Source: a virus. From it: DNA of 64,000 nucleotides. Where the stretch lies: positions 38,000 through 101,999 of the IMG/VR virus record IMGVR_UViG_3300047564_002353; one strand, given 5' to 3'. The translations under genes and the position numbers were made by a program. Within the stretch, counting starts at the first letter, position 1; each line of letters starts with the position of its first letter. A model generated the notes under the pieces. That model saw only the letters and a list, made by a program, of their open reading frames with translations. It was not told the origin of the DNA and ran no database searches. Shown in pieces: positions 32,061-58,142 of this stretch.

Positions 32061-32136
32061 GCACTGATAGCTCAATGGTTAGAGCTAGAGTCTCTAAAGC
32101 TTTAGGTTATGGGTTCGAGTCCCATTCAGTGCACCA
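32061..32136 (+). tRNA. tRNA with CUA anticodon (amber suppressor)
   Basis: Acceptor GCACTGA/TCAGTGC + A-CCA; D-arm GCTC/GAGC; anticodon stem AGAGT/GCTTT with loop CTCTAAA; T-arm ATGGG-TTCGAGT-CCCAT; TTGACA promoter at 32023. Confidence 0.85.
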
Positions 32137-35049: not shown

Positions 35050-35991
35050 ATGGCAACTAAAAAGCCCGCAGCTAAACCTGCAACCAAAAAACCCGCAGTA
35101 AAGAAACCCTTGGCTCGAACTAAAAAACCAGTAGCAAAACCAAAAACAGTTACCAAGGCTAAAACTACTAAAAAACCACAGGTAGTGGAATCTGTAGAAG
35201 CAGAACTAGACTTTAAACCAGTGAGCAGCTTTATGAGCTTACATGCTGCCATGGATCCAGAAGCACAACAAGCCATGATCGCTGAACAGACTAGACGTGC
35301 TTTTGATGTAGAAGCTTATGTACAGTTTAATGTAGCTCAAACTCAAGTGGCCCGTTCAATCGTAGAAGAAAACGTCACTGACGCCATGCAATCTTGGGCC
35401 ATTAACGCCGGCGGTAATAGAGAAATGATCATGCGTACTACCGATGATGTATATCGTAATCGTCTTATGATGTTGAACTTGCTGAAACCAGAAACAGCTG
35501 AACAGGCCGCATTCCAAGAATCAATGATTAACAAAACTAAATTGGAATACCTACAACATCGTAATCTAATGAATCGTCGTATGGTAGAAATTGCACAGGA
35601 AATGGCCACTGCTATTAAGAACATTGGCACAGCCAGTGAAAAGTTCTATCACGCCAACGAAGAAATGGCAGCATTTATTTCAGATGTAGCCACAGAAAAT
35701 GCTCAATGGCTTGACGGCGGTCTACGTGACGAAATGCGTGAAGCTACCAACATCACTAACGATCAACGTATCCAGCATACCATGGAAGTTAGCCAACTCC
35801 TAGCTAAAGATGCACAGACTAATCGTGTGCGTATTAAGGAAGTAGCAGAATTCGCACAGGGCCTAGGCGACAGCCTACAAGAACTACAGGAAAACGGTAA
35901 CGAACTACGCGAAGAAGTTATTACTCTACGCGAAAGCATTGATGCTAATCAGCGCAGAGTAGCGGATACTATCGTTGGAAAACGTAGATAA
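35050..35991 (+). CDS. Coiled-coil protein with a Lys/Ala/Pro-rich (histone H1-like) N-terminus
   Basis: ATKKPAAKPATKKPAVKK followed by long amphipathic helices. Confidence 0.75.
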   Translation: MATKKPAAKPATKKPAVKKPLARTKKPVAKPKTVTKAKTTKKPQVVESVEAELDFKPVSSFMSLHAAMDPEAQQAMIAEQTRRAFDVEAYVQFNVAQTQVARSIVEENVTDAMQSWAINAGGNREMIMRTTDDVYRNRLMMLNLLKPETAEQAAFQESMINKTKLEYLQHRNLMNRRMVEIAQEMATAIKNIGTASEKFYHANEEMAAFISDVATENAQWLDGGLRDEMREATNITNDQRIQHTMEVSQLLAKDAQTNRVRIKEVAEFAQGLGDSLQELQENGNELREEVITLRESIDANQRRVADTIVGKRR

Positions 35992-36229
35992 AATACTGCT
36001 GAAATCTGAGCCTCCTTCAGTGACCGACATGGTAGTACCCTGGAAGAGGCGCAGTAGACTACGTCGTATACTGACTCAAATTAGACGTATACGACGCAGT
36101 CAACCACATCTTGCTCTAGAATATCGCAGAGAAAATCAAGATGTTTATATCACACTACGCAACGAACGAGATTTTCTACTGTTCAAATTGATGTGGCCTC
36201 AAGACTTGCCACAGTGGCGCAGAGTCTAA
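35975..36229 (+). CDS. F-x-L-K/R-W family small protein
   Basis: LRNERDFLLFKLMWP. Confidence 0.6.
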   Translation: MENVDKILLKSEPPSVTDMVVPWKRRSRLRRILTQIRRIRRSQPHLALEYRRENQDVYITLRNERDFLLFKLMWPQDLPQWRRV

Positions 36230-43906: not shown

Positions 43907-43993
43907 GCCCGGGTGGTGAAATAGGTAGACACAAGAGACTTAAAATCTCTCGCTCGAAAGGGCGTGCCGGTTCGATTCCGGCCTCGGGCACCA
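43907..43993 (+). tRNA. tRNA-Leu(UAA)
   Basis: GCCCGGG acceptor, AGAGA-CTTAAAA-TCTCT anticodon arm, long variable arm, GGTTCGATTCC, CCA. Confidence 0.95.
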
Positions 43994-44000
43994 CTAACAT

Positions 44001-44075
44001 CTGGCCGTAGGTAAATGGATATACCAGTAGCCTTCTAAGCTTCTATTCCAGGTTCGATTCCTGGCGGCCGGACCA
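44001..44075 (+). tRNA. tRNA-Arg(UCU)
   Basis: CTGGCCG/CGGCCGG acceptor, loop CTTCTAA, A20 in the D-loop, CCAGG-TTCGATT-CCTGG, CCA. Confidence 0.9.
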
Positions 44076-44201
44076 CTCCCTAGGTTAGTAAGCACTAACT
44101 TACAAATCCCTCCAAAACAGTTAACTATTAAAATTTTTGGTTGACTTTTTTACGCAAAGCTGTATAATACAAACACTTAAACAAAACAGCAGGAGCGTAA
44201 A

Positions 44202-44495
44202 ATGCGTGTAAAAAAAGCAACTAAAGCAGACGTAGCAACTATTGTAGCAATTATGCAAGCTGACTTAGCACGTTATGTGCAACTAACAAAAACAGTAGAC
44301 GCTGACGCAGACGACATTTACATAACAGAATTGCACTACGACGACATTGTGTACAATTACAATGCACTGTTGCAGTTTACGCAAGACAAAGACACAGTAA
44401 AATTGTGCGACGCACTAATTAAACAAGACACAATTGTGCGCGAGTTTTTTTATAAAACTGTACACTACGCAACAGACAATTATTTGTACTATTAA
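44202..44495 (+). CDS. Early protein lacking Gly, Pro, Ser and Trp
   Basis: Promoter and AGGAGCG RBS; gene has no TC, CC or GG dinucleotide. Confidence 0.75.
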   Translation: MRVKKATKADVATIVAIMQADLARYVQLTKTVDADADDIYITELHYDDIVYNYNALLQFTQDKDTVKLCDALIKQDTIVREFFYKTVHYATDNYLYY

Positions 44496-44565
44496 TTTTG
44501 GTTGACAAAGTGTGTATAGTGTGCTACTATACACACACTTAAACAAAACACATAGGAGCGAAACT

Positions 44566-44745
44566 ATGCAAACAACTAAACAACAACTATTTGCTAAATT
44601 AGCAGAAGTGCAAGACCTGCTACATAACAGCACTTGCGACAGCGAAACTTTTGCACAAAGCTTGCAAGCTGACATAGGCTGGGCTGCGGAGCTGGACATT
44701 GCACTGCGTACACTTACAGACAATATAGATTATTACGTGGACTAA
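44566..44745 (+). CDS. Small early protein
   Basis: Promoter 44502, AGGAGCGAAACTATG. Confidence 0.75.
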   Translation: MQTTKQQLFAKLAEVQDLLHNSTCDSETFAQSLQADIGWAAELDIALRTLTDNIDYYVD

Positions 44746-44807
44746 AAACGGTTGACAAAGTGTGTGTACTGTGCTATTATACACACACTAACACATAGGA
44801 GCGAGAA

Positions 44808-44972
44808 ATGGACGAAGCTAAAATTGAGCGGCTGGAACGTACACTGTGGGAGCTAGAGCAGCTGGCTAGTGAGCTGTTTGACATGGGCTACATTACACAG
44901 GGCAACATGATTTATGATGCTGTAGAAGCAATGGACATGGAATTGCAAGACGTAGTAGAGGGGAGAGCATAA
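44808..44972 (+). CDS. Small early protein
   Basis: Promoter 44752, AGGAGCGAGAAATG; MDEAKIERLERTLWELEQL. Confidence 0.7.
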   Translation: MDEAKIERLERTLWELEQLASELFDMGYITQGNMIYDAVEAMDMELQDVVEGRA

Positions 44973-45205
44973 TGTTGCTTAAATACCAAATTGAAGAACT
45001 GCTGGCCCTGGATGCTGACGGCCTTGCTAGAATTGCAAGAGCCAGTGGTTACAAAGATGCTAAGTTCACTGACTGCGAGTTTGTGGGCATTACTAACGGC
45101 GGCGAGTTTGCATATAAAGCAACATATTTTGAGGACGGTGCGTACGACTTTACAAAATTGTATGTTCGCCGTGACCCTGCTGGGAACTATGTAGCAGACT
45201 ACTAA
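44972..45205 (+). CDS. Small early protein
   Basis: FVGITNGGEFAY motif. Confidence 0.7.
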   Translation: MLLKYQIEELLALDADGLARIARASGYKDAKFTDCEFVGITNGGEFAYKATYFEDGAYDFTKLYVRRDPAGNYVADY

Positions 45206-45275: not shown

Positions 45276-45518
45276 ATGTTTGCTACTGCTAAAAACAACA
45301 CTGCTTACGCTAAACTGTCCTTTTGCAAAAAACTGCAATTGTTTAAAATGATCGTTGCTTTTAATGTAACGCAGCGTAATGCTAAGGGCAAACTGTTGTT
45401 TCCTGTGCAACAAAAGTGCAACTATGTTAGTGGTCACTTTGCGCTAGAGGACCTTGCTAAACAGTTAACTGTTGCGGAGCAGCATCTGCGTACAAATAAA
45501 ATACAAATTGTAGAATAA
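45276..45518 (+). CDS. Small early protein
   Basis: Promoter 45218 and AGGAG RBS. Confidence 0.7.
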   Translation: MFATAKNNTAYAKLSFCKKLQLFKMIVAFNVTQRNAKGKLLFPVQQKCNYVSGHFALEDLAKQLTVAEQHLRTNKIQIVE

Positions 45519-46194: not shown

Positions 46195-46446
46195 ATGTTT
46201 AAATTAGATGAGCCGCGTGAAGTACATTTCCAAGGCAAAACGTACACTACATGGCACGGTAGCCCATTTGACCGTGGCAGTGCAGACAGCTGGTACAGCC
46301 GCAGTGCTAAACCACACTGGTACCCCGAAGGCACTGGGCGTGGTGAGATTGTAACAGAAGAGCGCATGAGCTTGGCGGAAATTGAAGCATACTTCGCTGG
46401 CTATGACCACAATGAGCGGTTTGGTGGTAAGAAGAGCTGGGACTGA
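46195..46446 (+). CDS. Early protein (HG.PFDRG.AD.WY type)
   Basis: Promoter 46134, AGGAGCGAACTATG. Confidence 0.75.
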   Translation: MFKLDEPREVHFQGKTYTTWHGSPFDRGSADSWYSRSAKPHWYPEGTGRGEIVTEERMSLAEIEAYFAGYDHNERFGGKKSWD

Positions 46447-52143: not shown

Positions 52144-53271
52144 TTAGTTTATTCCTTTATTTGTATATTCTTCAAACCATTGTGCCAGTTCTGGATTAAC
52201 CATGGCCAATGTTTCGTTTCTTACCCTATCCAATGACTGATTAAATTTTAAAAACAGTTCAGGATCTCCTTGCACAGTCAATTGACGTTTGATCAGTAAT
52301 TTCCACTGTGGAACTCTTGAACTGGTAGTATAATCTAATCTATCTATCAGTATATGTTTAACGGATTCGGGGATATGTTTCACGGTCATCCATTCTGGTC
52401 CGTCGATCATAGCAAAAGTGAATTTAACTGTAGGGAAGTTTTTAGTTATAAAGTTAGACAGCGTGTCCAAGCAGTTAACATTGTAGATAGATATTACACT
52501 GTAGACTTCAACTTTTTTCCATGTAAGAGTATAATATTTTAAATTTTCTACCACTGTGTCCCATTGACTGCCTTTACGCAGATAGTCGTTCAATTTTCCA
52601 TAGGCATCTATACTTAACACCCAATTAACTGCTGCACATTGTTCAAGCAACACTACTAGTTCGTTATCAGGTTTAACTGTGCAGTTTGTGATTATATCCA
52701 GAGTAAGTTGTGATCTGTTGCATTTAAGTAAGAATTTTTTTATTCTATCCTGCTCCAGCATGGGTTCACCGCCCACTATTTTAGCGTTGACCAATGAAGT
52801 AAAATCTGTATTTTCAATATAGTCGTCTATATTTTTCACACCTCTATCAAAGGGCATGTTTAATTTTATTGCATCCGGATACCAATATGTGCTCAGTTGC
52901 GGAGTACACATTCTGCATTTGTTATTACATAAATTGCTAAAAGCAAGGTCAATACTTTGTAACTTTGCAGTAGTTGGTATTTCAAAACGTTTATTTTCTT
53001 TTTTTTGATAGAAGTCAATTTTTTCTAATCGTAGACTATAATTCAAGCTGATTTCATCTATGTAGCATTTTGAGCATTCGACCACAGTTTTACCTTGCCG
53101 TACTTGATTTCTCACAGATTCTAAGTAAGGGTGATTGAACCAATTTTTATTATTGATATTTAAATCTTCGGGTAATTGTTTAGGGTTAAAATAGCAACAG
53201 GGATAAATTTTTCCATCAGGGCGAACATGTCCGTGATAAAATAGCAGTGGGCATTGGGATTTACTTGTCAT
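52144..53271 (-). CDS. Radical SAM protein with N-terminal twitch/SPASM-like domain
   Basis: CNNKCRMC, GGEP, SIDA...YLR; N-terminal C...PCC...C..C. Confidence 0.85.
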   Translation of the reverse strand: MTSKSQCPLLFYHGHVRPDGKIYPCCYFNPKQLPEDLNINNKNWFNHPYLESVRNQVRQGKTVVECSKCYIDEISLNYSLRLEKIDFYQKKENKRFEIPTTAKLQSIDLAFSNLCNNKCRMCTPQLSTYWYPDAIKLNMPFDRGVKNIDDYIENTDFTSLVNAKIVGGEPMLEQDRIKKFLLKCNRSQLTLDIITNCTVKPDNELVVLLEQCAAVNWVLSIDAYGKLNDYLRKGSQWDTVVENLKYYTLTWKKVEVYSVISIYNVNCLDTLSNFITKNFPTVKFTFAMIDGPEWMTVKHIPESVKHILIDRLDYTTSSRVPQWKLLIKRQLTVQGDPELFLKFNQSLDRVRNETLAMVNPELAQWFEEYTNKGIN

Positions 53272-55749: not shown

Positions 55750-57168
55750 TTAGGGTTCAGTAGTGAGGTTGCTCAATAATTGTCTTAGTTTACTGCCTTC
55801 CACTTGTGTTTTGCTAGAAGGTACACTAGCTCCTTCAGCAGGGTCCGAATTCACAGTACTATTTCTTTGTAAACTATTTAAAATTTGTCTACTGCGCACA
55901 CTTTGATTATCATCTTCGGTTTGACCTTCTTCGCCTGGATCTGTAATTCTCAATGTATCAATATCAAAGTCTAGATCAATTTTCATACCTACACCAGAGC
56001 TACTTCTAGTTTTCATTAGTTGAATTTGATATTTGCCATGTTCACGCATAGCACGACTAGTAAAGATACCGAACACATTATCTGCTGTTTGGATTTTACT
56101 AAGTCCTCCTGAAATATGACTATGATCATATTCTACTTCTTCTACAGCGCCTCGATTTAACTGTGCTGCTGTAACCAGTACACATTGTTTTTCCATTGCT
56201 AAGTTACGTAGTTCTTCTGAAACATATTTGTCTTTAACGAATAAGTTTTCTGCTGATATTTTTCTACTTTGTGGCATCAGTAGATCGAGATAATCTACTA
56301 ACAGGATGTCTACTTTGCGTCCTAATTTAATTTCATATTCTTTAAGATAGCTTCTAATATCGTTAGCAGTCTTACCACTAGGCATATATTTTACTTGATA
56401 AGTTCCTGATTTTTTTCCAATCACTTTAACTTTCATTTCTACTTCGTCGATTTGTTTAAAGATATCTCTACTAGGAATATCAGTAATCATACTATCGATA
56501 CGCATACTAACCAGTTCTTCGCTAAGTTCCAATGTAAGATACACTACGTTCATACCTTGCAGAGCCCAATTAACTCCTAGATTAGCAAGGAAGAGACTTT
56601 TACCAGCACCTGATCCACCTGCGAAGATATTCAGTTCTCCTCGATTCATACCTCCGAACAATCGTTTATCTACAGTTTGCCAACCTGTACTCATTTGTCC
56701 GTTTTTATCTTTAATCCTCATTAATCTAGCTCTAGGGTCAGCGAAGTAGTCAGTACCCATGTCTTTAGTCAATCCAATTTGCACTGCTTGTTTAACTAAA
56801 TCTTCTACAGGGCCATACTCGCCTTTTTCTAGTAGATCGGCACTTTTCAAGATAGCTTGTTCAAGTCCTTTGTGTCTAATAAATGTTTCAAAATCTTGCA
56901 TAAGCCAATCATAATGTTCTTCTTTTAATTCTCCAGGAAATTTTAAATCAGATTTAGTAGCTGCATTAACAATTTCATAGGTAGGTAGTATACTGTGATC
57001 GACTACATAATCGTTAATAAATTTAGCTGTATTTTGTAATTTTCTATCAAATAGTTCGTGATTGTAAATGCTTTGACATCTTACAAAAGTTTCGGCATCG
57101 CTCAACATCATTTCCAAATAAAGATGTTGTATTTCATATCCATAATCTGCGTTTTGTCTTGTAGTCAT
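55750..57168 (-). CDS. Replicative DnaB-like helicase (T4 gp41-like)
   Basis: GGSGAGKS, LELSE, VDYLDL, TAAQLNR, KTRSS. Confidence 0.9.
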   Translation of the reverse strand: MTTRQNADYGYEIQHLYLEMMLSDAETFVRCQSIYNHELFDRKLQNTAKFINDYVVDHSILPTYEIVNAATKSDLKFPGELKEEHYDWLMQDFETFIRHKGLEQAILKSADLLEKGEYGPVEDLVKQAVQIGLTKDMGTDYFADPRARLMRIKDKNGQMSTGWQTVDKRLFGGMNRGELNIFAGGSGAGKSLFLANLGVNWALQGMNVVYLTLELSEELVSMRIDSMITDIPSRDIFKQIDEVEMKVKVIGKKSGTYQVKYMPSGKTANDIRSYLKEYEIKLGRKVDILLVDYLDLLMPQSRKISAENLFVKDKYVSEELRNLAMEKQCVLVTAAQLNRGAVEEVEYDHSHISGGLSKIQTADNVFGIFTSRAMREHGKYQIQLMKTRSSSGVGMKIDLDFDIDTLRITDPGEEGQTEDDNQSVRSRQILNSLQRNSTVNSDPAEGASVPSSKTQVEGSKLRQLLSNLTTEP

Positions 57169-58142
57169 AATTTATTATATTTTATCTCTATATGTTTTGT
57201 GTCTTCGTCGGATTGATATTGCACATGATTTTTAGTATGGGCTAACACTGCTCCTATTGCACTGCTAGCATCTCCAGGCCAAGGTAAACTCCATATGCCT
57301 CGCCATTGATATCTTAGTTGTCGATTAAATTTACTATTATAAGCACATCCGCCCATATATACAAGATTTCTAAAACTGGTTAAGTTTCTTGCCTTAACCA
57401 TAATATAATCCATTTGTTCTTCAAATATTTTTTGTGTTGCAGCCGCGATATCATAAACATCTTGTTCTGAAAGATCATAATCAAAAGGCCAATTATAAAC
57501 ACCTTTATGTAGATTATATTTCAATACTGTAGGTTTTTTAAAGTAATTCAATATTTCATCGTAATACACATATGGGTTACCTTTGTCGCTTAATTGTTGG
57601 AACAGATATTCTTGTGATCCAGGTTGTAGTCCTACTAAATCTGTAAAGGCGCTGTAAAAGATTCCTAAACTGTTAGGATAGCTTTTACTCCAAAGTTTTT
57701 CTAAAGTTTTACCATGCCCTCTCCAGATGCTCATAGTTTCAAATTCCCCTATAGCATCTACCACTACGACTGCTGCTCTATTAAAACTGCTAGTATAATA
57801 TCCAGCAGCAGCATGACTATGATGATGTGCTGTATATACAATAGGGCAATCAATCTTAAACTTTTTCAAATATATACTAGGAATTTCTGAAATTTTAAAG
57901 CATTCTTTATATTGTCCAGCTCGTAGTTGTCTAAGTTTTTTCAAAAATGGTTTTTCATACCAATATACAGTTTTGGGTTCTCCATACAAAGTTTTAGCAT
58001 GATATATTATTTCTTCATTAAGATAATGATCTCCTCGAATATGAGTGAAATCACTGCTACGTCTATGCCATACAGGAACACCATCTCTGAATACACAGAT
58101 ACTGGCATCATGATTTAGTGCATTAATTCCCCAGACTATCAT
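57165..58142 (-). CDS. Carbamoyltransferase N-terminal (NodU/CmcH Kae1-like) domain protein
   Basis: GINALNHDAS, HHHSHAAAGYYTS, VDAIGEF, SLG.FYS, GGCAYN, PGDA.SAIGA. Confidence 0.85.
   Translation of the reverse strand: MIVWGINALNHDASICVFRDGVPVWHRRSSDFTHIRGDHYLNEEIIYHAKTLYGEPKTVYWYEKPFLKKLRQLRAGQYKECFKISEIPSIYLKKFKIDCPIVYTAHHHSHAAAGYYTSSFNRAAVVVVDAIGEFETMSIWRGHGKTLEKLWSKSYPNSLGIFYSAFTDLVGLQPGSQEYLFQQLSDKGNPYVYYDEILNYFKKPTVLKYNLHKGVYNWPFDYDLSEQDVYDIAAATQKIFEEQMDYIMVKARNLTSFRNLVYMGGCAYNSKFNRQLRYQWRGIWSLPWPGDASSAIGAVLAHTKNHVQYQSDEDTKHIEIKYNKL

Follow-up and report, generated by a model that had tools for sequence, protein, structure and literature searches.

A coding-strand ban on pyrimidine-C dinucleotides in small promoter-led genes of an uncultured freshwater jumbo phage

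Background

Why would a phage rid one strand of several consecutive genes, together with their promoters and leaders, of a single kind of dinucleotide step, and what in the infected cell would read that step? The question is raised by record IMGVR_UViG_3300047564_002353 (101,999 bp), of which a stretch of 64,000 nt was analysed here (hereafter the window; all positions follow its numbering). From 44112 to 45065 the + strand of the window contains no TC and few CC. A sequence-only reading of this DNA had noticed the missing TC and proposed that the stretch is invisible to restriction or other sequence-specific defences. Throughout, YC stands for 5'-pyrimidine-C-3' (TC or CC), and o/e for the observed/expected dinucleotide count.

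Results

Extent, strand and boundaries of the tract

The last TC upstream of the tract lies at 44111-44112 and the next one at 45066-45067, leaving a + strand TC gap of 955 bp; the second-longest TC gap is only 165 bp, both in the window and in the whole 101,999-bp record. Relative to base composition, 44112..45065 contains 0 TC where 42.7 are expected and 7 CC where 33.2 are expected, and 170 of its 178 C residues are preceded by a purine. The complementary steps GA and GG are only mildly reduced (58 versus 73.5 and 31 versus 44.1 expected, respectively), thus the YC ban is confined to the + (coding) strand. It spans three complete promoter-gene cassettes and the first 90 bp of a fourth gene, and fades downstream of 45065. 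The features of the unit and of its upstream edge are as follows.

43907-43993, + strand: tRNA-Leu(TAA), predicted by ARAGORN, directly upstream of the tract
44001-44075, + strand: tRNA-Arg(TCT), predicted by ARAGORN, directly upstream of the tract
44084-44099, + strand: small hairpin GTTAGT-AAGC-ACTAAC, read from the sequence
44107-44113, + strand: last TC/CC cluster, TCCCTCC, the sharp 5' boundary of the tract (from the sequence and the gap table)
44141..44168, + strand: promoter 1, TTGACT-16-TATAAT, with an A/T-rich stretch upstream; first promoter of the YC-free unit
44202..44495, + strand: gene 1, 97 aa, acidic helical bundle; TC 0, CC 0, GG 0, GA 15
44502..44536, + strand: promoter 2, TTGACA-17-TACTAT, overlapped by the inverted repeat GTGTGTATAG/CTATACACAC
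44566..44745, + strand: gene 2, 59 aa, assigned by alignment to family B, with C-terminal DYYVD; TC 0, CC 1
44752..44788, + strand: promoter 3, TTGACA-17-TATTAT, with the inverted repeat GTGTGTGTA/TACACACAC
44808..44972, + strand: gene 3, 54 aa; TC 0, CC 0
44972..45205, + strand: gene 4, 77 aa, translationally coupled to gene 3; TC 2 (12.4 expected), CC 8 (9.0 expected)
45276..45518, + strand: gene 5, 80 aa, family E, partly purged; TC 5, CC 3
46195..46446, + strand: a later, TC-poor cassette; TC 2 (11.1 expected), CC normal at 11 (11.6 expected)

YC content is ordinary across the tRNA pair (43907..44075). The sequence-only reading had described a stretch from 44113 to 45065 without TC where dozens would be expected, a sharp start after tRNA-Arg and a palindromic site, a first gene (44202..44495) without CC or GG whose product has no Gly, Pro, Ser or Trp, and a bias that fades downstream. 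The per-strand dinucleotide counts that it suggested as a check agree on every one of these points, the palindromic site being the hairpin at 44084-44099 and the fading being visible in gene 4, and the depletion proved more pronounced than described, extending to CC.

In gene 1, all 13 aspartate codons are GAC, and ATC, TTC, GTC and CTC are unused. A total of 33 homologues with 63-96% identity were found in the protein collection. The lack of GG in this gene (0 versus 9.2 expected) recurs as GG poverty in its homologues (2 versus 8.5 expected in L009), and GG is absent from just 3 of the 56 YC-free open reading frames (ORFs) of the phage family described below; it may be a property of the gene-1 protein family or a second, separate ban.

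Composition, codon usage and chance

Synonymous resampling of genes 1, 2 and 3 with phage codon usage gave probabilities of 0.0000, 0.0006 and 0.0002, respectively, for as few YC as observed. With codon order shuffled the values were 0.0000, 0.0008 and 0.0084, showing that YC is avoided at codon junctions as well. The sequence-only reading had named an explanation by amino-acid and codon shuffles as the outcome that would overturn its claim, and the shuffles fail to explain the depletion. Throughout the tract serine is encoded by AGY only, ATC, TTC, GTC and CTC are not used, and codons starting with C are never preceded by a codon ending in T or C. The untranslated parts follow the same rule, since the three promoter/leader pieces contain 37 C, none of which stands after a pyrimidine except one at the extreme edge of the tract. 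A codon or tRNA effect, including one of the two upstream phage tRNAs, was thus rejected, as junctions and untranslated parts also obey the ban, and tRNA supply was rejected as a cause because NTT codons are read by the same tRNAs as NTC codons. While the encoded proteins are small, acidic and helical and have little need for proline or glycine, as a by-product of protein composition, codon bias or chance would have it, this is refuted by resampling and shuffling, by the compliance of leaders, promoters and unrelated protein families, and by a protein family whose purge is complete in one genome and partial in another; we give such an origin practically no credence.

Spread of the ban through the phage family

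Related phages were examined at 80 IMG/VR loci, collected via the ATPase gene 4 kb downstream of the tract as an anchor. Many of these loci contain tracts lacking both TC and CC, always on the gene strand. The longest YC-free stretches, of 1,445 bp in L017 and 1,244 bp in L065, have zero YC, and the L007 tract covers 2,672 bp with just 10 YC, while YC gaps on the minus strand reach a maximum of 162 bp across the loci. In the pooled tracts (16.4 kb) o/e is 0.03 for TC and 0.09 for CC, and at least 0.75 for all other steps. Among 1,209 + strand ORFs, 64 have a TC o/e below 0.1, and 56 of these 64 also have a CC o/e below 0.25; the distribution of TC depletion is bimodal, so the purged ORFs form a discrete class.

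The tracts code for several conserved families of small acidic proteins, including family A (17 members) and family B (14 members, with gene 2 of the window among them). Orthologue pairs differ at 56-152 nucleotides with both members YC-free, and the ban is upheld by selection. For the gene-1 region, one orthologue genotype (L105-L110) was compared as DNA, the 33 homologues being counted at the protein level. Family E has 0 YC in L041 and 8 YC in gene 5 of the window, which indicates that the ban tracks position in the array and not the protein.

Two near-complete relatives (at least 94% complete) carry weak tracts only. One near-complete genome, G003 (L083-L102; 383,411 bp), has a single TC-free gene (90123-90524), and hence the purge in the clade affects anything between a single gene and 2.7 kb. 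The ends of G003 carry a direct repeat of about 2.7 kb. In Pseudomonas phage PA5oct, the nearest cultured relative by helicase and ATPase, YC gaps are short (244-311 bp, at 32% G+C). PA5oct (L081) gp099 lies within a 244-bp stretch (35829-36073) without TC or CC on the coding strand, perhaps a weak form of this trait in a cultivable phage. T4 early genes have normal TC and CC, and a general T4-type trait was therefore rejected. In the literature searched, we found no description of early phage genes devoid of a dinucleotide; the principle of target avoidance is known, and the form of this ban and its reader are new.

Link to transcription and replacement of the lost C

The onset of the tracts is abrupt and lies at a promoter, where YC per 250 bp drops from 20-30 to 0-2; tract length is 0.25-2.7 kb, and the return of YC downstream is gradual. 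The promoter core contains YC in 75% of ordinary cassettes, in 10 of the 23 first promoters of YC-free units and in none of their 25 internal promoters, the latter being those read through by upstream transcription. In four loci the last YC lies within the spacer of the first promoter, suggesting that the constraint sets in near the transcription start and runs along with the transcript.

The purge is stricter for TC than for CC, as 13 ORFs are depleted in TC only and 2 in CC only. Relative to the ordinary genes at the same loci, those without YC have less C (17.2% versus 21.6%) and more A (33.2% versus 28.9%) at essentially equal T and a similar G (26.7% versus 26.1%), and at third codon positions A rises (31% versus 22%) with T at 25% in both. 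Proline accounts for 0.1% of residues versus 3.4%, and the ban includes third-position C that is silent and follows T or C. As the lost C is replaced by A and not by T, selection is favoured over a deamination footprint; the gain of A fits selection because a codon ending in a purine leaves the next codon free. A mutational footprint of an APOBEC-like deaminase was accordingly rejected. Folding of YC-free mRNA is close to that of mononucleotide shuffles (minimum free energy per nt -0.218 versus -0.212, z -0.35), by which a purge in favour of structure-free mRNA was also rejected.

Genomic setting

The record is a fragment of an uncultured freshwater jumbo phage: CheckV gives it 29% completeness, it has no end repeats, the sequencing runs containing the phage are lake and freshwater metagenomes, and related phages reach sizes of up to 345-383 kb. 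Its helicase and AAA ATPase are closest to those of PA5oct and other jumbo phages, at about 50% identity, and no close relative of the record was found in the phage collection searched. About 90 small genes, all on the + strand, occupy 22-50 kb of the window, and between 38013 and 48867 almost all genes are individually preceded by a near-consensus sigma70 promoter, which places the YC-free tract in the middle of an early module. In metatranscriptomes, two libraries contain short, low-depth contigs over 44211-44498 (gene 1) and a few other spots, which do not amount to proof of transcription.

The inverted repeats at 44510-44536 and 44760-44788 overlap the spacer and -10 box of the internal promoters. 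They consist of alternating purine-pyrimidine steps only, the sole type of stem in which both arms comply with the YC ban, and an operator and a processing site are both possibilities. Surviving CC sites often lie within the word (A/G)CCTG(C/T)(T/G), as in the tracts of L007, L017, L018, L041, L061, L071 and L077 and at 44616 in the window; examples are GACCTGCT in gene 2 of the window and GCCTGCT in L018, L041 and L061. This recurrent word may mark a conserved site with a function, one that the tracts tolerate or even require. In other lake samples, contigs fuse cassette promoters (44526>46166, 45229>46157, 45530>46157 and 44792>46157), suggesting that recombination between copies of the promoter/leader sequence exchanges or removes cassettes.

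Elsewhere in the window, ARAGORN predicted a tRNA whose CTA anticodon would decode amber, at 32061-32136 inside the early block. A radical-SAM protein (52144-53271) and a protein with a carbamoyltransferase N-domain (57165-58142) lie among replication genes (helicase, primase) and may take part in nucleotide or DNA modification.

Discussion

What reads the YC step?

The force behind the purge must be strong and constant, because clearing more than 1 kb of coding sequence costs proline and much codon freedom. Since the constraint applies to one strand, is tied to the transcription unit, ignores the reading frame and is effective at silent sites, its reader is likely to recognize single-stranded nucleic acid and not to act via the genetic code. 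Moreover, the near-total purge at the cost of an amino acid suggests that one site suffices for the agent, which points to an enzyme that cuts or marks, rather than to a protein needing many contacts, and mRNA suggests itself as the simplest substrate. The data show the ban, its strand, its boundaries, its upkeep by selection and its spread through the family; from these we infer an enzyme acting on RNA as the reader, and the roles of the encoded proteins given below.

We propose that 44114-45065 would be the head of an immediate-early unit, transcribed by host RNA polymerase and composed of three to four promoter-led mini-genes. Selection has stripped 5'-pyrimidine-C-3' from its sense strand, TC almost wholly and CC slightly less, throughout leaders, coding sequence in three phases, codon junctions and read-through internal promoters, and relaxes gradually downstream. 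The mRNA would offer no target to a single-site, single-strand activity directed at C with a pyrimidine before it, UC being preferred to CC. This activity would most probably be that of an endoribonuclease or RNA-modifying enzyme at work when infection begins. The agent could come from the host, or the phage could carry it in or make it. It may be a defence common among hosts or a phage weapon of host shut-off, and the cassettes may represent a natural 'immune mRNA' system for its inhibitors. The small acidic products might be the first counter-measures or take-over factors, made while ordinary mRNAs are vulnerable.

YC is nearly absent in every frame from about the transcription start, internal promoters included, as expected of target-free mRNA, and precedents for both halves of the proposal exist. 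ACA-less mRNAs survive the RNase MazF while other mRNAs are destroyed (PMC9102682, PMC5408214), and the defence enzyme CmdT ADP-ribosylates mRNA at the dinucleotide GA (bioRxiv 10.1101/2024.02.24.581662). That the tract yields target-free immediate-early mRNAs escaping a UC/CC-directed RNase or RNA modifier is in our view a serious possibility, albeit somewhat short of an even chance; that infected cells of this clade contain an undescribed enzyme cutting or marking single-stranded RNA at C after a pyrimidine is put forward a shade more tentatively. The general idea of the sequence-only reading, a selective purge by which early and probably counter-defence genes escape a sequence-specific factor, is retained here without its restriction mechanism, and a UC-specific RNase, which it had listed as an alternative, comes close to our proposal, with the reservation that no such RNase was found in the literature searched.

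Several points weigh against this proposal. The literature searched gave no endoribonuclease or RNA modifier with UC/CC specificity, and mycobacterial RNase E was rejected as the agent, as it cuts between a purine and C, the opposite context. Sequence alone cannot separate RNA, the non-template DNA strand and the template strand that the polymerase reads. YC is normal in other early cassettes whose promoters are just as good, which calls for the extra assumption that this unit is the first to act or acts during the period of agent activity, and the graded fade-out is not simply explained because each cassette has its own promoter. Residual YC are not significantly more base-paired than control C (0.72 versus 0.68, P 0.08). 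Although models of the tract proteins are confident (pLDDT, the predicted local distance difference test score, 86.6 for gene 1 and 89.1), no sequence match for these proteins was found in Pfam, PHROG or PDB and no fold match for the models of the gene-1 family and family A; a BFVD search with a tract protein model returned uncharacterised viral look-alikes only. Pfam and PHROG scans of 50 larger ORFs detected ribonucleotide reductase, superoxide dismutase, a cell-wall hydrolase, GIY-YIG, primase, helicase, radical SAM and carbamoyltransferase, and no RNase, ADP-ribosyltransferase or deaminase, which is no evidence of absence as the record is 29% complete.

Alternative explanations

The sequence-only reading had favoured the view that the double-stranded DNA, being the first to be injected, is hidden from restriction enzymes or DarT, and T5-type phages indeed keep their first-step-transfer DNA free of some sites. 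Palindromes of the GA..TC and GG..CC kind and + strand TNTC sites are necessarily absent from the tract, and the statement that GATC, TCGA and GAATTC are excluded is correct. Their avoidance as a purpose does not hold, and their loss is best seen as a by-product, because the ban is one-stranded and permitted palindromes are not avoided: in the pooled tracts (16 kb) 4-mer palindromes that can be built without TC or CC number 1086 versus 1170 expected (o/e 0.93), the window tract has 13 6-bp palindromes versus 17 +/- 4 expected, and HindIII, PvuII and HpaI sites are present. A one-strand ban together with normal palindrome numbers contradicts restriction-invisible DNA. Avoidance of DarT leaves the CC ban unexplained, and since the minus strand, which is replicated as well, keeps 58 TC, DarT would still block replication; nor does the position of the tract in the middle of the early module support first injection. 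We consider this explanation very improbable. It has also to be asked whether the phage escapes its own bulky DNA modification, placed on G in GA/GG or on C in TC/CC and slowing host polymerase on the template. Coding-strand YC is template-strand GA/GG, and the sites at which DpdA inserts 7-deazaguanine are GA in phage iggy, and GA plus GGC in CAjan; such a modification would explain both the limitation to genes read from incoming DNA and the start of the ban at the transcription start. On the other hand, searches of the record and of five relatives, among them two that are at least 94% complete, detected neither a TGT/DpdA domain nor a ThyA-type hydroxymethylase, and matches to QueC are fragmentary only. 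CC is purged in every context, beyond GCC; every -35 box (TTGACA) has GA on its opposite strand; phages with deazaguanine are known to be transcribed throughout infection; and the two near-complete relatives checked have weak tracts only, so that we rate this origin as improbable. Avoidance of ultraviolet photoproducts, among which 6-4 products form at TC and CC, was rejected, as the template strand would need protection and yet keeps TC and CC, and TT and CT are not avoided.

Two further candidates read single strands, and we regard each of them as unlikely, to a similar degree. One is the termination factor Rho: without YC it would not load, and the unit would be transcribed to its end even when untranslated, the YC downstream permitting termination. 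Rho is the only known bacterial factor with exactly 5'-YC specificity on single-stranded RNA (PMC12360218; PMC6144790), each of its primary binding clefts binding a 5'-YC dinucleotide (PMC12360218). Spaced 5'-YC dimers are missing from the RNA, as in a transcript without Rho utilization (rut) sites, the ban affects the RNA-like strand, sets in at the transcription start and weakens from 5' to 3', and the tract has more G (25%) than C (17%). However, loading needs several spaced YC within about 60-80 nt and is cumulative and probabilistic (PMC6144790), therefore thinning would be enough, and a 97% purge that abolishes proline is unexpected. TC is purged more strictly than CC although C-rich RNA is the best Rho ligand (PMC6144790), and the genes at 44972-45205 and 46195-46446 are TC-poor with normal CC. 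No rise of G or of predicted structure accompanies the purge, Rho could do little harm to genes of 180-300 nt with their own promoters, and T4 early genes, whose timing is Rho-dependent, keep normal TC and CC. A search for a phage-encoded Rho RNA-binding domain found none; the control panel for this domain gave no match in Synechococcus. The other candidate is that the non-template DNA strand, which is displaced and accessible where transcription is heavy or R-loops form, is shielded from an enzyme acting on pyrimidine-C in single-stranded DNA, such as an APOBEC/DddA-like deaminase or an endonuclease IV-like nuclease. The order TC over CC matches known C-directed enzymes of this kind, T4 endonuclease IV being dC-specific on single-stranded DNA with a preference for dT-dC-dA (PMC1635256, PMC2095790). 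The constraint is also strand-specific, bound to the transcription unit and decaying away from the promoter, and silent third-position sites are banned, as if damage rather than miscoding mattered. Against it, there is no C-to-T footprint, T being unchanged and A increased, and hence a purely mutational origin is unlikely; a nick or uracil in the non-template strand is repairable, so that lethality of a single site is unexpected; adjacent cassettes with consensus promoters are unpurged; and no homologue of DenB, the T4 endonuclease IV, was found in the record, which is 29% complete.

Significance and comparison with known systems

The signature of the ban (RNA-like strand, transcription start, TC over CC) is specific enough to search for its nucleic-acid reader. 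If this reader is an RNase or RNA modifier, the cassettes point to a new effector, of immunity or of shut-off, together with its inhibitors; in the case of Rho, they would be the first natural example of complete rut erasure. The sequences also supply YC-free recoding as a ready-made and directly testable design rule.

The phage tracts resemble ACA-less mRNA, which has no copy of the short MazF target and stays translatable while other mRNAs are destroyed (PMC9102682, PMC5408214), in that a word is avoided throughout and independently of frame. They differ in that the word is a pair of dinucleotides (UC, CC), so that the amino-acid alphabet itself is altered, and in that the trait is natural and clade-wide, with the matching RNase not found in the literature searched. 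CmdTAC is comparable in showing that dinucleotide specificity can be enough for an anti-phage enzyme that acts on mRNA (bioRxiv 10.1101/2024.02.24.581662), whereas GA, the target of CmdT, is only mildly reduced in the phage tracts (o/e 0.79-0.91), and escape by purging is undescribed for CmdTAC. With Rho rut sites they have in common the same two dinucleotides, the RNA strand and the 5' polarity (PMC12360218, PMC6144790). Rho, however, wants many spaced YC in C-rich RNA, and the phage purges single sites, TC more than CC, in short genes with their own promoters. DenB of T4 is a phage-encoded enzyme making single-strand cuts at C, with T preferred before the C (PMC1635256, PMC2095790). It acts on DNA, and T4 protects itself by replacing C with hydroxymethylcytosine, not by avoiding sites.

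In their architecture, the cassettes are akin to the promoter-early stem-loop (PeSL) modules of T4 and to the takeover modules of T5 and SPO1, in which tiny early genes stand behind a hairpin and a consensus sigma70 promoter. The same arrangement was found here, a hairpin and a sigma70 early promoter flanking small ORFs, with shuffling at repeats, and we know of no dinucleotide ban in PeSL or in the host-takeover modules of T5 or SPO1. Eukaryotic viruses are depleted of UA/UU versus RNase L, of CpG versus ZAP and of TC versus APOBEC3, partially and genome-wide. The phage tracts are comparable to these as an escape from an innate immunity that reads dinucleotides, and differ from them in that the ban is near-total, strand-specific and contained within one transcription unit.

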